From a virus (Duplodnaviria > Caudoviricetes), in IMG/VR virus record IMGVR_UViG_3300046823_000179, positions 1 through 47,285 of that record: 47,285 nt of DNA; one strand, written 5' to 3'. This document shows positions 1,561 through 14,808 of the stretch, piece after piece. The position numbers and the translations under genes were made by a program. The first letter of the stretch is position 1. Every line of letters begins with the position of its first letter. The notes beneath the pieces were generated by a model, which was not told the DNA's origin, did no database searches, and saw nothing but the letters and a program-made list of their open reading frames with translations.

Positions 1561-2186
1561 GCTGCGCTCGCTTCCTTCCGCCGGGCCCTCTCGGCCCGTG
1601 CTTCTTCGCGTCGTGCCGCCTCTTGTGCGGCCAGGTCGAGGACGTCGCCGACGAGGAACAGCGGCCTCTGGTCGCGGTCCCATCCGTGGGGGTGGAGTTT
1701 TGCGGGCCGTGCAGCTTGGACGCAGGTGCCGCTGTGGTCGTAGCGGACCTGTCGCTCGGTGGCCCACGACCGGATGGTCTTGACGTTGATCCCGTAGGCG
1801 TTGGCGATCTCGGCGGCCCGGAAGGCGTGAGCCCGCACCTCAGCGTCGAGCCAGGCCCGGCGGTCCGCAGATGCCACCTCGGCCCCGCAAGTCCGGCAGC
1901 GGCCGACTGAGGCCCCTTCGCGGGCGTAGATGTCGCCGTCGCACTGCATGCCGTCGACGTAGGTCCGCTCTCCGGCGGCCCGGTCGGCGAACGTAGTCGT
2001 CTCGACCTGTGCTGGCGCCCCGCACGGCCCGAGGTACTTCTGCGGCGCCGGTCCCCGCGCGGTGGAGCTGACGATGCGCGCGCACGCCTCGACGTCGGTC
2101 AGGAACTCATCCGCCCAGGGCTGATGGCGCGCGTACTCAAGCTGCGTAGCCAGGAACTCAACAGCGGCGACGATGGGGTCACTCAT
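1557..2186 (-). CDS. Zn-ribbon/HTH phage regulator-like protein (probable C-terminal half of a split gene)
   Basis: YLGPC..CDG..CRTCG cysteines and C-terminal AAEIANAYGINVKTIRSWA HTH. Confidence 0.7.
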   Translation of the reverse strand: MSDPIVAAVEFLATQLEYARHQPWADEFLTDVEACARIVSSTARGPAPQKYLGPCGAPAQVETTTFADRAAGERTYVDGMQCDGDIYAREGASVGRCRTCGAEVASADRRAWLDAEVRAHAFRAAEIANAYGINVKTIRSWATERQVRYDHSGTCVQAARPAKLHPHGWDRDQRPLFLVGDVLDLAAQEAARREEARAERARRKEASAA

Positions 2187-2821
2187 CGCGCTACCAGCCG
2201 CCTCACCTGGTTATCGAAGATCGTGTGGCACGAGCTACATCGCGGCTGGTAGTGCTCGGGCTTGGCGCTGTAGTGCTTGCCTCCCGCGTCTGCCGGTTCC
2301 ACGATCTCGTCGGGGTCGGCATGGTCGTACGACCAGCCGCTAGCCCACCCATCGCAGTCAACGCATTGCATATCCCGGGCGCTGCCGCGAATGCTCCGGA
2401 TGCGGGAGTGGGCACCTTGGTAGGTGACGGCCTCGCCCTGCCAATTCGGGCTCAGCGGGCCTGGCAGGTCTCGACTGCTCGGCCGGGCGACCAGGGGATC
2501 GCCAGAACTGCACCAGCGCTCGTAGTGCAGGCGGCACCACCCTCGGGACTTCTGAGGCCGGTCGCAGTCCTCGACGGCGCAGGCGACCGGGACGGGCGAC
2601 GCGACCTCGAGCAGGCCGGTTCGCTTCCACCGGTAGTAGTGGAGCTTGCACCACGTGCGGGCCTTGGACCGGCGCTCGCAGCCCTCGATGCTGCATTGCC
2701 CGCCTACCGGGGATCGACGCCCAGCGGTGGGATCGCCGTGATCGAGCCAGCGGCGGTAGTGGCCCTCGCACCAGGTGCGGTGGGAGGTGGGCTTTCCGCA
2801 ATGCGTCACGGAGCATGTCAT
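2183..2821 (-). CDS. HNH-type homing endonuclease with N-terminal Cys/His repeats
   Basis: Three C-x4-C...WC..HY.RW repeats; C-terminal CVDC...H...YQPRCSSCH nuclease-like motif. Confidence 0.7.
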   Translation of the reverse strand: MTCSVTHCGKPTSHRTWCEGHYRRWLDHGDPTAGRRSPVGGQCSIEGCERRSKARTWCKLHYYRWKRTGLLEVASPVPVACAVEDCDRPQKSRGWCRLHYERWCSSGDPLVARPSSRDLPGPLSPNWQGEAVTYQGAHSRIRSIRGSARDMQCVDCDGWASGWSYDHADPDEIVEPADAGGKHYSAKPEHYQPRCSSCHTIFDNQVRRLVAR

Positions 2822-4587: not shown

Positions 4588-4800
4588 TCACGGGGTCACC
4601 TCGCGGGCGGTGGCGGCGCGGTAGCCGTCGATCCAGCCGTAGTGACGCCAGGCGAAGGCGACGGCCAGCACCTCGGCGATGGAGAGCGGCAGGTCGAGCA
4701 GGTTGATGCCGACGGCCAAGAGCACGTGCCGTACGACGAAGGCGGCGATGAAGGCCAGGAACCAGCGGCGGGCGAGCTGGCGTGCTCGGGTGGGCGTCAT
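4588..4800 (-). CDS. small membrane protein
   Basis: MTPTRARQ start; two hydrophobic segments. Confidence 0.6.
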   Translation of the reverse strand: MTPTRARQLARRWFLAFIAAFVVRHVLLAVGINLLDLPLSIAEVLAVAFAWRHYGWIDGYRAATAREVTP

Positions 4801-5522
4801 GAGTTCTCCTGCTCGGCGAGAGCTTCGGATCGGCACAGCGCGCAGTTGTCGGCGGGCTGCCCTCGGTGCTGGCGGCATTTCGGTGCCTTGCGTCGGCGCT
4901 CGGCGTCGGCCAGTTCCCAGCGGGTCCGGGCCTTGCGGGCATCGCCGCACGCCCGGCACGGGTCCTCGGTGGGGTGTTCGAGGTGTTCGGGGCATCGAGG
5001 GGGCGGGGCGTCGCGTGCGCCCGGCGTAAGTGGATCTCCTAGAGCGCCCCCTAGAGATTGGCCGGGACGGGCCGGGGGATTCGGGGGCGATTCGGGTATG
5101 CCATCGGGTACCCGATCGGGTGGGCGATTACCTACCCGATCCTGTTTGCCCTGGCAGTAGCGACACGAGGCGTTTTTCTTGCCTTTCCCGATGTGCCATC
5201 GGCGGTGGTTACCCAATGCGCCACCCGATGACATTTCGTCGCGTCCGGCGATCACTTCTTCCTTCGTCGGCTGGTACACGGACCAGTCGTGGAACAGGTA
5301 TCCACCCTTCGCTCGCTTCCACAGCCCTCGCGTGACCAACTCCCGTACGCCTCGCTCGGGGTCGTCGCAGAAGCGGGCGGGCATCCCGGACGGCACGAAC
5401 CCATCGGTGAGGTTCCGTGCGGACCAGGTACCGGCGCGCGTCCACAGCGCCACGGCGCAGTCGGGGGCGTCGAACACCTTGGGGTGGTCGTAGAACGAAT
5501 CGTCGATCTTGAACCAGGTCAA
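4797..5522 (-). CDS. phage replication initiator-like protein (N-terminal winged-helix type)
   Basis: TTG start then TWFKIDDSFYDHPKV...LWTRAGTWS..NLTDGFVP...LVTRGLW...YLFHDW, typical of actinophage replication proteins; C-terminal Zn motifs. Confidence 0.75.
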   Translation of the reverse strand: MTWFKIDDSFYDHPKVFDAPDCAVALWTRAGTWSARNLTDGFVPSGMPARFCDDPERGVRELVTRGLWKRAKGGYLFHDWSVYQPTKEEVIAGRDEMSSGGALGNHRRWHIGKGKKNASCRYCQGKQDRVGNRPPDRVPDGIPESPPNPPARPGQSLGGALGDPLTPGARDAPPPRCPEHLEHPTEDPCRACGDARKARTRWELADAERRRKAPKCRQHRGQPADNCALCRSEALAEQENS

Positions 5523-5524
5523 CG

Positions 5525-5859
5525 TGCACCACCGAGAAGCGTGGCGTATTGCACGGCGTGGCTTCTTGCGCACAGAGGGCGCGCCCATGCGAGTATCACC
5601 GCAGGGCTCCTTCCAGTTCGGTAGAGCGAACGGAGTTGCCTTAGTCCCGGGATTCGGTGCGACCAACACCATTTCCCGGGCACCCCATTCTCCCAGCTCA
5701 CGCCCACAGAGGCACCCGAATCGCCGTGCGACTCGCCGATGCCCTGTGCGTTTCTGATCACGTTCTTCGCCCTCGTGCTTCTATCGCGCCGTGCAATTCG
5801 CCGGGGATGGCCGAATAGGCCGGGCATGACACGCCCGGCCACAATCGCCGAATGGTGCA
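5525..5859. ncRNA. candidate large structured RNA or 5' leader of the replication gene
   Basis: Seven nested complementary segments in a ~340 bp gap with no convincing ORF (see findings). Confidence 0.5.
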
Positions 5860-5866
5860 GCCGGTG

Positions 5867-6286
5867 TCAGGCAGCCCCTTTCTCGCGGCCAGCGCGACGG
5901 CGCGTCAATTTGTCGATAAGGCGTTCGGCGGCGGCTGGCGGCGCATCAATCGCAGCGAGGCCATGTGCTGCGGCGGCGGCACCGGACGGCCACAGCGGCA
6001 CGGGTGAGTCGTAGTCGAGGATTGCTTCGACCGTCTCGGCGGACACCCCGACGATGGGGGCGAAGCGCAGCGCCAGCGACTCGTTCATGTCGTGGCATCC
6101 GACCCAGCCGGCGCACGCCCGGCCGTCCTGCTGGTGGCACAGGAACAGGCCGGTCGGCTGCTCGCCGGTGGGGCGGTCGTAGGCCGGGAGCTTCGCGTAC
6201 TCCTCGGCGACCCAGACGCCGGAGGGCACGTCGCGGCGGTACGGGCACGATTCGCACGGCCTCGGCGCTGGCGGTCGGACGCTCAC
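5867..6286 (-). CDS. DUF6283-like protein
   Basis: PRPCESCPYRRDVPSGVW..EEYAKLPAYD...FLCH...CAGW..CH signature. Confidence 0.75.
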   Translation of the reverse strand: MSVRPPAPRPCESCPYRRDVPSGVWVAEEYAKLPAYDRPTGEQPTGLFLCHQQDGRACAGWVGCHDMNESLALRFAPIVGVSAETVEAILDYDSPVPLWPSGAAAAAHGLAAIDAPPAAAERLIDKLTRRRAGREKGAA

Positions 6287-13055: not shown

Positions 13056-13273
13056 GGAGACGACCATATGCATCCGAGGAGGGAGATGCAAGGGTCCGTT
13101 CGGCCAGGTGCAAGATTTGATCGAAGGGCTTGACTCTCTAGACGGATGCCGTAACGTTTCCATCCATGGAGACATGGAGGCTTCGCCCGCGAACGAAGGC
13201 GCGCCGTGTTTCCGCAGCTAGGAGTGACGCAGGTCGGACATCCGCGAGCGGACTGGTCCGATATGGTCTCCAC
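13056..13273. promoter_or_regulatory. lysis/lysogeny switch with divergent promoters
   Basis: Minus: TTGCAT(13091-13086)-17-TATGGT(13068-13063)-7-ATG. Plus: TTGACT(13130)-16-TAACGT(13152)-8-ATG(13166), and TATGGT(13262)-6-ATG(13274). Confidence 0.7.
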
Positions 13274-13678
13274 ATGCGGAAATCCGAGCCACTTCCCGCC
13301 TTCCCCGAGTACCTGCGAGAAGCGATCTCACGGATGGGCTACGCGACCCCGACCGAGTTCGCGCGTGCCGCCGGAATCAGCTCCAGCGTGGTTTCCCGCT
13401 GGCTCAACGGCGTGGTGCGCCCCGACGTGCCGCTGCTCGAGCGCATCACCCCGCACCTCGGCACGAAACTGAGCACGCTCGTCCGCATCGCCTACCCCGA
13501 GATCGACGACGCGCTGCCGATCGACGACGCCCCCGCGCTGCACCCGCTGGTCGCCGAACTGCAGCGCCGGCTCGGCCCGCAGTCCACCCTTTCCGCCGAC
13601 GAGCAGGACGTCCTGGCCCGCTTCGTTGATACCGTGCTTGCTCCCTACCGCTCCCGATCCACGCCGAGGGCAGGCTGA
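13274..13678 (+). CDS. immunity repressor (XRE HTH); possible longer isoform from 13166
   Basis: YLREAISRMGY.TPTEFARAAGISSSVVSRWLNG..RP; directly upstream of integrase. Confidence 0.85.
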   Translation: MRKSEPLPAFPEYLREAISRMGYATPTEFARAAGISSSVVSRWLNGVVRPDVPLLERITPHLGTKLSTLVRIAYPEIDDALPIDDAPALHPLVAELQRRLGPQSTLSADEQDVLARFVDTVLAPYRSRSTPRAG

Positions 13679-14808
13679 TGGCGTACATACGGCAACTCCC
13701 GTCCGGCCTCTGGGCCGCAACGGTCCGCACGCCGGCCGGCCGCATCACCGAAACCCACGAGCTGCGCGGCACCGTCGCCGCCTGGGCGGAAAGCCTGAAG
13801 GCCGACATCAACCGCGGCGAGTTCCTCGACCCGCGCCTGGCCAAGCGCACCGTGGGCGAGGTGTGGGAGAAGTACGCGCCCGCGCGCCGGGTCGAGATGG
13901 CCAGCCGCAAGCGCGACGAGTCGCACTGGAAGGTCTGGGTGGCGCCGCGCTGGGCGGCCGAGCCGATCGGCGCGATCGTCAAACCCGACGTGCAGACCTG
14001 GGTCAACCAGCTCGAGGAGGACGGTGTCGGCGGTTGGACGATCATCGCCGCGCTCAACGTCCTCAAGGCCGCACTCGAGCTCGCTGTCGATGCGGGGTGG
14101 ATCAAGGCGAACCCGGCCCGCCGGGTCCGGCCGCCCGTCGCGCCGGCGCACGTCGACCGGGTCATCGACGCCGACGAGGAGACGCTAATCCTCGATCGCC
14201 TGGACGAGCTGTTCCCCGAGCGCCGGGATGCGCGGCTGTTCGTCGAGACGATGCTCGAGACGGGCGGCCGGTGGGAGGAGGTCGCCGCGGTGAAGAGGGA
14301 AGCGGTGAACCTGCGTGCGGGGCTGGTGGCGTTCGGGCCGGTGATGGAGCGCGACGGCACGGTGCGGGAGTATCCGAAGGGTGCTCGGTCGCGCAACCAT
14401 CCGGCGTTCCGGGATGCGCCGCTCGGTCCGGAGCTGCTGGCCCGACTGCGCCCGATCGTGCTGGCCACGGACCCGGGTGGGCTGGTGTTCACCGCGCCGA
14501 AGGGTGGCCCGCTGCTGTACCCGACCTGGCGTAGCCGGGTGTGGATTCCGGCGCTGCGGATCCCGGTGCTCGACGAGGACGGCAAGCGCATCGGGTGGAC
14601 GCCGCTGGTGGCCGATCCGCAGCCGACGCCGCACGACATGAGGCACACGTTCGGCACGAGGCTGGCGGACGGGGGCCTCGAAGTGCATGACCGGATGGCG
14701 CTGATGGGCCATAAGGACATGCGCAGCGGTCAGCGGTACACGCATTCGGGGGATCGGCGGTTCGATGCGGCGAGGGCCGCGCTGCGCCGCGCCAGGACTG
14801 GATCATGA
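13678..14808 (+). CDS. int: tyrosine integrase
   Basis: Catalytic motifs TGGRWEE, HDMRH, LMGH, RYTH; N-terminal arm-binding region; attP downstream. Confidence 0.95.
   Translation: MAYIRQLPSGLWAATVRTPAGRITETHELRGTVAAWAESLKADINRGEFLDPRLAKRTVGEVWEKYAPARRVEMASRKRDESHWKVWVAPRWAAEPIGAIVKPDVQTWVNQLEEDGVGGWTIIAALNVLKAALELAVDAGWIKANPARRVRPPVAPAHVDRVIDADEETLILDRLDELFPERRDARLFVETMLETGGRWEEVAAVKREAVNLRAGLVAFGPVMERDGTVREYPKGARSRNHPAFRDAPLGPELLARLRPIVLATDPGGLVFTAPKGGPLLYPTWRSRVWIPALRIPVLDEDGKRIGWTPLVADPQPTPHDMRHTFGTRLADGGLEVHDRMALMGHKDMRSGQRYTHSGDRRFDAARAALRRARTGS

Follow-up and report, generated by a model that had tools for sequence, protein, structure and literature searches.

A conserved cassette immediately upstream of the replication initiator gene of a temperate soil phage probably controls initiator synthesis through an antisense RNA directed against a short leader frame that is coupled to the initiator, an arrangement like that of CopA/tap/repA in plasmid R1. 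Established at the level of sequence are a strong ribosome site, the leader, the overlap of its stop with the following start, opposite-strand bases with promoter spacing, and a strand-biased fold of two stem-loops. The cassette is a real new family of a known control type, probably working like the plasmid systems and belonging to no Rfam family.

Genomic setting

The window, i.e. the whole stretch of DNA analysed (47,285 nt), is a 47-kb virus record. It contains an integrase gene (13678–14808), a repressor-like gene (13166–13678), and terminase, portal and capsid genes; judged from its integrase and repressor-like genes, the phage is temperate. The early operon lies on the minus strand and runs from the YqaJ and RecT genes to a DUF6283 gene, a 344-nt gap and the initiator (Table 1). 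An HNH endonuclease-like gene (2183–2821, minus strand; phrog_5351, E 6e-26) is also present in the operon.

The initial annotation had described, within this gap, a multi-branched structure of seven nested pairings ahead of a weak TTG start, and had proposed a large cis-regulatory RNA or a stand-alone or antisense RNA. All seven pairings were found where they had been placed, and the TTG is indeed the start of the replication initiator. Folding of 5515–5870 gave z-scores of -3.60 (plus strand) and -3.98 (minus strand) against dinucleotide shuffles, none of 100 shuffles being as low, while 15 windows of the same length (356 nt) elsewhere in the early region, folded as controls, gave z-scores of -1.1 to +1.3. 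The gap is structured, as had been claimed; it is not free of reading frames, since two minus-strand ORFs (5761–5519 and 5599–5519) cross it and their shared stop overlaps the TTG. No conserved protein is encoded in it, and covariation is present. The annotation had recognised no named RNA family in the element, and none was matched: searches of Rfam with the window and five member loci gave no match at gathering score (best E 0.82, unrelated), and the families of CopA, Inc/RNAI, C4 and oop were likewise unmatched at that score.

Table 1. Position of the cassette features and adjoining genes in the window
Feature	Position	Strand	Remarks
Upstream gene, DUF6283 family	5867–6286	-	Pfam PF19800, E 2e-34; stop at 5867; relatives have other genes here
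Hairpin right after the upstream stop	5835–5864	-	5864–5856 with 5843–5835; competes with the outer stem; crude pattern in 14/28
Ribosome-site-like GAGGG of the long upstream frame	5770–5774	-	GAGG or GGAG ahead of the GTG in 20/28
Long upstream ORF	5519–5761	-	GTG at 5761, 80 aa; shares its reading frame with the short leader; no peptide conservation
Long-range helix P1	5569–5750	-	5750–5741 with 5580–5569; paired in 71% of cells, double changes at 3 pairs; encloses more mRNA-strand helices, whose G-U tallies favour this strand
Predicted antisense RNA	5603–5696	+	Stem-loop 1 5603–5642, bulged stem-loop 2 5644–5683, unpaired pyrimidine tail; 3' end guessed from the tail
Ribosome site of the short leader, GGAAGGAG	5607–5614	-	Invariant in alignments A2 and A3; complement of antisense nt 5–12
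Hairpin E around the leader start codon	5585–5606	-	Same bases as the predicted promoter; 94% of cells paired
Predicted antisense promoter	5588–5603	+	TG 5588–5589, -10 box GAGTAT 5591–5596, start A 5603; invariant spaced bases
Short leader ORF	5519–5599	-	GTG start, 26 aa; stop overlaps the initiator start (TTGA)
Local hairpin over the weak ribosome site of the initiator	5527–5546	-	5546–5541 with 5532–5527; predicted in 28/28 members, -3.5 to -17 kcal/mol
Replication initiator	4797–5522	-	TTG start at 5522, 241 aa; phrog_2447, E 9e-44; homologues begin MTWFK

Members of the family and their neighbours

The family comprises 31 members (the window and 30 other phage or metagenome sequences), 28 of which are complete, with a median pairwise identity of 62% (range 48–89%). 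They include Actinoplanes prophages, the proteins adjoining two members coming from Actinoplanes italicus and A. campanulatus. An initiator-based search returned 19 loci, two with the element; motif scans of viral contigs with profile scoring gave 20 members, the window included, and a fifth such scan (73 loci) added none. A metagenome scan yielded 15 loci, of which 11 were new, two previously found, one a duplicate and one a non-member. Since members were found by motif patterns and a profile, invariance at those motifs is inflated. Three truncated members (L169, L170 and L174) were excluded from alignments A3 and A4.

No match was obtained by BLAST with the elements of the window and L033 against 50,697 phage records (INPHARED), or with that of L010 against 72,556 plasmids (PLSDB). 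Neither our search model R1 in 151 sampled genomes of the class of G003 nor a strict pattern in 401 sampled genomes of its order found the element, both samples being without a positive control, and a genome-contig search with the initiator protein gave four loci, none carrying it. No second copy occurs within the window genome, so the cassette is not a repeated mobile element.

The cassette always lies just upstream of an initiator or primase; its next gene belongs to one of 12 unrelated clusters, whose distribution on the cassette tree is near random (18 changes against a shuffled mean of 19.8; 20 of 200 shuffles as low). This gene is an initiator in 20/28 members (16 by PHROG, four by similarity to those); in the other eight, the second gene, abutting, is an initiator or primase-helicase. 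Since the position is fixed while the next gene changes, the cassette marks the entrance of the replication module, whichever module is present. The core is dispensable, because two relatives with close initiator homologues (L006 and L011, 77% and 84%) lack it and keep only the first hairpin, one similar to the hairpin right after the upstream stop.

A diverged relative, L009 (2130–2320, plus strand; nhmmer E about 0.001, missed by model R1), was not counted as a member. It keeps the GGGAGAAT and GGAAGGAGCC motifs and lacks both the short leader and the T at -7; the gene served by its ribosome site encodes 228 aa and is coupled to the initiator. Just upstream are three DnaA-box-like sites, and L022 and L033, both Actinoplanes prophages, have a perfect DnaA-box-like site, TGTGGATAA, about 20 nt upstream of the long frame.

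Genes that are GIY-YIG-like (by eye) or HNH (phrog_14314) lie between cassette and initiator in L008 (2384–3004) and L170, and in L034, L036 and L039, with start/stop overlap or near-abutment at both sides. A link to homing endonucleases or introns was considered and rejected: HNH- or GIY-YIG-like genes follow the cassette in only 4/28 members, and no intron model matched.

Leader frames and coupling

The short leader has 22–26 codons among members and starts 7–11 nt from GGAAGGAG, part of which had served as a search pattern. Its stop overlaps the next start in 20/20 members of the first set and 9/9 complete new members, the overlapped gene being the initiator in 20/28 and the gene preceding the initiator in 8/28. 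The peptide is not conserved: majority frequencies of 0.65, 0.64 and 0.71 at codon positions 1, 2 and 3 give no sign of third-position relaxation, so that the leader peptide is, by this measure, not under selection. A Pro/Ala codon of the leader ends in A in 28/28 members, compared with 6% in eight phage genes, and motifs are read in different frames within the long ORF. The overlapped frames gave no match to PHROG.

The long upstream frame reaches the overlap with the next gene in 20/28 members, ends on the start of the short leader in seven and is broken in one, whereas either other frame reaches the overlap in 0/28. L164 is the sole complete member with an interrupted long frame. Conserved at the start of this frame in all members (5759–5761 region of the window) is GGTGATCC, which also complements the 3' end of 16S rRNA beyond the usual ribosome site and may be a second ribosome contact. 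The motif CnnGTG (5555–5549, minus strand; short-leader codons 14–15) has a nucleotide-level conservation of 82–96%. Pairing with GCAC/GACAC near the start of the long frame is one possible role; another is that of an activator site, about 45–50 bases upstream from where the antisense RNA would begin. A longer initiator, extended at its N terminus and beginning at the ATG in CATGG, was rejected: stops interrupt the frame in L038 and L039, and L114 and L060 lack the ATG.

Predicted promoter and antisense RNA on the opposite strand

An extended -10 promoter is one with a TG extension upstream of its -10 box. On the plus strand of the cassette, the pattern TG-n-n-A-nnn-T followed by a start A is conserved, with -15 T, -14 G, -11 A (5592), -7 T (5596) and +1 A each present in 28/28 members, and these invariant bases have the spacing of such a promoter. 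The bases between them vary, and the spacer to the start is 6–7 nt. The pattern was also present in 10/10 members found without constraining positions -15 to -7, these being homologues and not independent draws. According to one study, the -10 box of Actinoplanes is TAnnnT, with the first T in only 63.6%, the A in 90.8% and the last T in 85.7% (PMC7682106), and the predicted promoter fits this box with its loose first T. Position -12 is T in 0/28 members and a clear -35 box was not seen; the predicted promoter may therefore be weak or need an activator. A sigma-70 and terminator scan, which requires a -35 box and a U-run, found nothing. On the mRNA strand, the TG and the start A are also part of hairpin E, and their conservation could be due to that. 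Two RNA runs, X18 and X19, consist of low-depth contigs from relatives, in which neither strand nor transcript ends can be read.

The two stem-loops and pyrimidine tail of the predicted antisense RNA recur in 28/28 predicted folds, and the fold begins within nt 1–3 of the predicted start in 28/28. In the window, z was -3.35 for the antisense strand versus -1.93 for its complement; over the members, the ~95-nt antisense strand had a mean z of -3.2 versus -1.6 and was the lower in 27/28, coding controls giving -0.1. G-U pairs, which distinguish the strands, were tallied in 19 cells on the antisense strand versus 5 on the mRNA strand in the upper helix of stem-loop 1, whereas three other helices favour the mRNA strand (36:5, 19:5 and 7:0); a split of this kind is as expected if both strands are selected RNAs. 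The stem of stem-loop 2 covaries (U-A 14, C-G 12, G-C 2) and its loop varies, while in stem-loop 1 double changes are nearly absent (1 cell); the covariation outside stem-loop 1 rests on few events (2–4 per pair). The first twelve antisense bases cover the leader ribosome site. YUNR, a loop motif, occurs in the variable loop on the mRNA side in 23/28 members versus 12/28 on the antisense side.

Helices on the mRNA strand

Six mRNA-strand helices, chosen by averaged pair probabilities, are paired in 84% of cells (0/500 shuffles as high) and contain 59 double-change cells versus 29 in shuffles, although the structure was derived from the same sequences and relatedness inflates pair counts, tree counts giving 2–4 events for the best pairs. 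In hairpin E, one pair is G-C in 17 members and C-G in 9, with 2–4 independent switches. The pair counts exclude the lower helix of stem-loop 2, which A3 and A4 misalign. With the plain alignment as input, RNAalifold retrieved no more than 16 pairs.

Two of the pairings originally described belong to the conserved structure, i.e. the long-range stem now called P1, which is kept in relatives with double changes, and the hairpin at 5616–5631. Others are peculiar to few sequences: the stem 5589–5594/5731–5736 is kept in 2/28 rows, and 5651–5660/5712–5722 depends on an insertion found in 3/28. The outer closing stem, which had been thought to cover the ribosome site of the initiator, is not conserved, since the local hairpin at that site outweighs the long-range partner in 18/28 members; in the window itself the long-range partner prevails (0.42 versus 0.17). 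By eye, the 3' arm of the stem 5548–5558/5787–5797 recurs, its partner moving position. A single nested 335-nt fold with a closing stem is thus unsupported by comparison among relatives, and what stands of the earlier proposal is a conserved, structured RNA element that probably controls the initiator, together with its antisense option.

One reading of these helices is a purely cis-acting mRNA switch, in which P1, a helix on the first ribosome-site bases and hairpin E would hide or expose the leader start without any antisense RNA, triggered by temperature, by a protein, or by ribosomes arriving along the long upstream frame. The conservation of the mRNA-strand helices, the three G-U tallies in favour of this strand and the predicted partial pairing of the ribosome site are all consistent with such a switch, under which the leader coupling would stand as well. 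However, it accounts neither for the pair of invariant loop bases spaced like -11 and -7, nor for the fact that the opposite strand folds better in 27/28 members and that this fold begins at the predicted +1. Taken as a whole, with any of its triggers, we consider it unlikely.

Other possible functions for the predicted opposite-strand promoter and the dyad

In bacteriophage lambda, the pO promoter affects replication, and oop RNA targets the cII mRNA and leaves the O-P mRNA unchanged (PMC3985674). The cassette resembles pO/oop in that a short opposite-strand transcript, here predicted, starts just upstream of the initiator gene of a temperate phage. It may be asked, then, whether the promoter acts like pO, by transcriptional interference or by tuning origin transcription, with the RNA mattering little to the initiator. 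Position and direction match those of pO/oop upstream of lambda O. However, the fold of the RNA and the invariant 5' bases that match the leader ribosome site are conserved, and no cII-like conserved protein lies beneath the predicted antisense RNA. Whereas oop acts on cII mRNA, being complementary to the 3' end of an upstream regulatory gene that is conserved, the frames overlapped in the cassette have neither a PHROG match nor peptide conservation and are coupled to the initiator. A pO-like role is accordingly rated as distinctly improbable.

Still less probable, although the CCnTG...CAnGG symmetry is nearly invariant, is that the dyad at 5585–5606 would be a DNA operator for a repressor or the initiator and the remainder a transcription attenuator: the spacing shifts by one base in 7/28 members, G-C and C-G replace each other at the inner pairs, and no shared initiator could read the dyad, those encoded downstream being unrelated. 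Hardly credible is a ~95-nt RNA acting mainly in trans on other phage or host ribosome sites through partly exposed anti-Shine-Dalgarno bases; antisense nt 6–10 are invariant and predicted to be 38–61% unpaired, but GAAGGAGCC (at most one mismatch) occurs 16 times in the window versus 14.7 expected, the sole exact match being the element itself, and this candidate was rejected for want of target enrichment in the window.

Proposed antisense control of the coupled leader and its relation to known systems

For antisense control of the coupled leader, we propose the following course: i) the initiator, with its weak, hairpin-covered ribosome site, would rely on ribosomes coming from the leader; ii) host RNA polymerase would make the antisense RNA from the opposite-strand promoter; iii) the variable loop of stem-loop 2 would make the first contact with the mRNA, pairing then extending over ~95 bases; iv) the duplex would hide GGAAGGAG, reducing synthesis of the leader and hence, likely, of the initiator; v) within the long upstream frame, the duplex would be cut by RNase III or would expose the mRNA to termination, closing the second entry; vi) in a lysogen, the antisense RNA would titrate early mRNA that arises by leakage, preventing the integrated prophage from entering replication; and vii) upon induction, early mRNA would exceed the antisense RNA. 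This model is weakest at the long upstream frame, which could bypass a block of the short leader in 20/28 members, so that duplex cleavage or polarity must be assumed.

CopA is about 90 nt long and has a two-stem-loop shape, as does the antisense RNA predicted here. In plasmid R1 (IncFII), CopA is described as an antisense RNA just upstream of the tap leader, to which repA translation is coupled (PMC5717011); the cassette is alike in having a predicted antisense RNA just upstream of a short leader frame coupled to an initiator. It differs from the R1 system in having no sequence relation to it (no Rfam match), in its host, an integrating actinobacterial phage, in that the predicted RNA would cover the ribosome site itself, in its second, longer upstream frame, and in serving many unrelated initiators.

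In the I-complex plasmids a hairpin covers the rep ribosome site, a feature predicted for the cassette as well. An antisense stem-loop RNA that inhibits rep translation and a leader gene coupled to the initiator gene, both with predicted counterparts in the cassette, are described for these plasmids (ColIb-P9 Inc/repY/repZ; IncB RNAI/repB/repA) in PMC10724649. A pseudoknot of the I-complex type, between the loop of stem-loop 2 and the pre-start region, was looked for among conserved pairs of the consensus fold, which is itself pseudoknot-free, and no such pair was found; the loop varies. No counterpart of the two-entry leader was seen in the sources consulted on R1 and the I-complex.

Among phages, C4 of P1/P7 and the CI RNA of P4 also regulate a short leader frame in an early operon, but they are encoded on the same strand as their targets; in the cassette, by contrast, it is the opposite strand that carries the promoter signature and fold bias, and there was no match to an Rfam model. 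RNA also takes part in the replication of other actinophages, extrachromosomal mycobacterial prophages being described as having RNA-based origins beside parABS, no integrase and mostly no RepA (PMC7157519), whereas the cassette lies ahead of a protein initiator and its phage does have an integrase.

Implications

Antisense control of a coupled leader is a textbook mechanism of plasmid copy-number control. In the literature covered, mostly outside the subscription journals, we did not find it for the initiator of an integrating actinobacterial phage, and the supplements of RNA-motif surveys could hold the motif. Since two members are prophages of cultured Actinoplanes species, the model is directly testable, and in Micromonosporaceae the cassette could find use as a compact translation switch under RNA control. 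If the model is true, prophage replication would be subject to a second lock besides the repressor, and possibly to a layer of superinfection exclusion. A wider reading, which we regard as doubtful and put forward only tentatively, is that the cassette is a portable, repressor-independent replication lock of integrating phages, one cassette having been joined to a dozen swapped initiator/primase modules, with the variable loop defining specificity groups, such that the RNA of a resident prophage would block phages with the same loop. If so, plasmid-style incompatibility would be serving as phage immunity.
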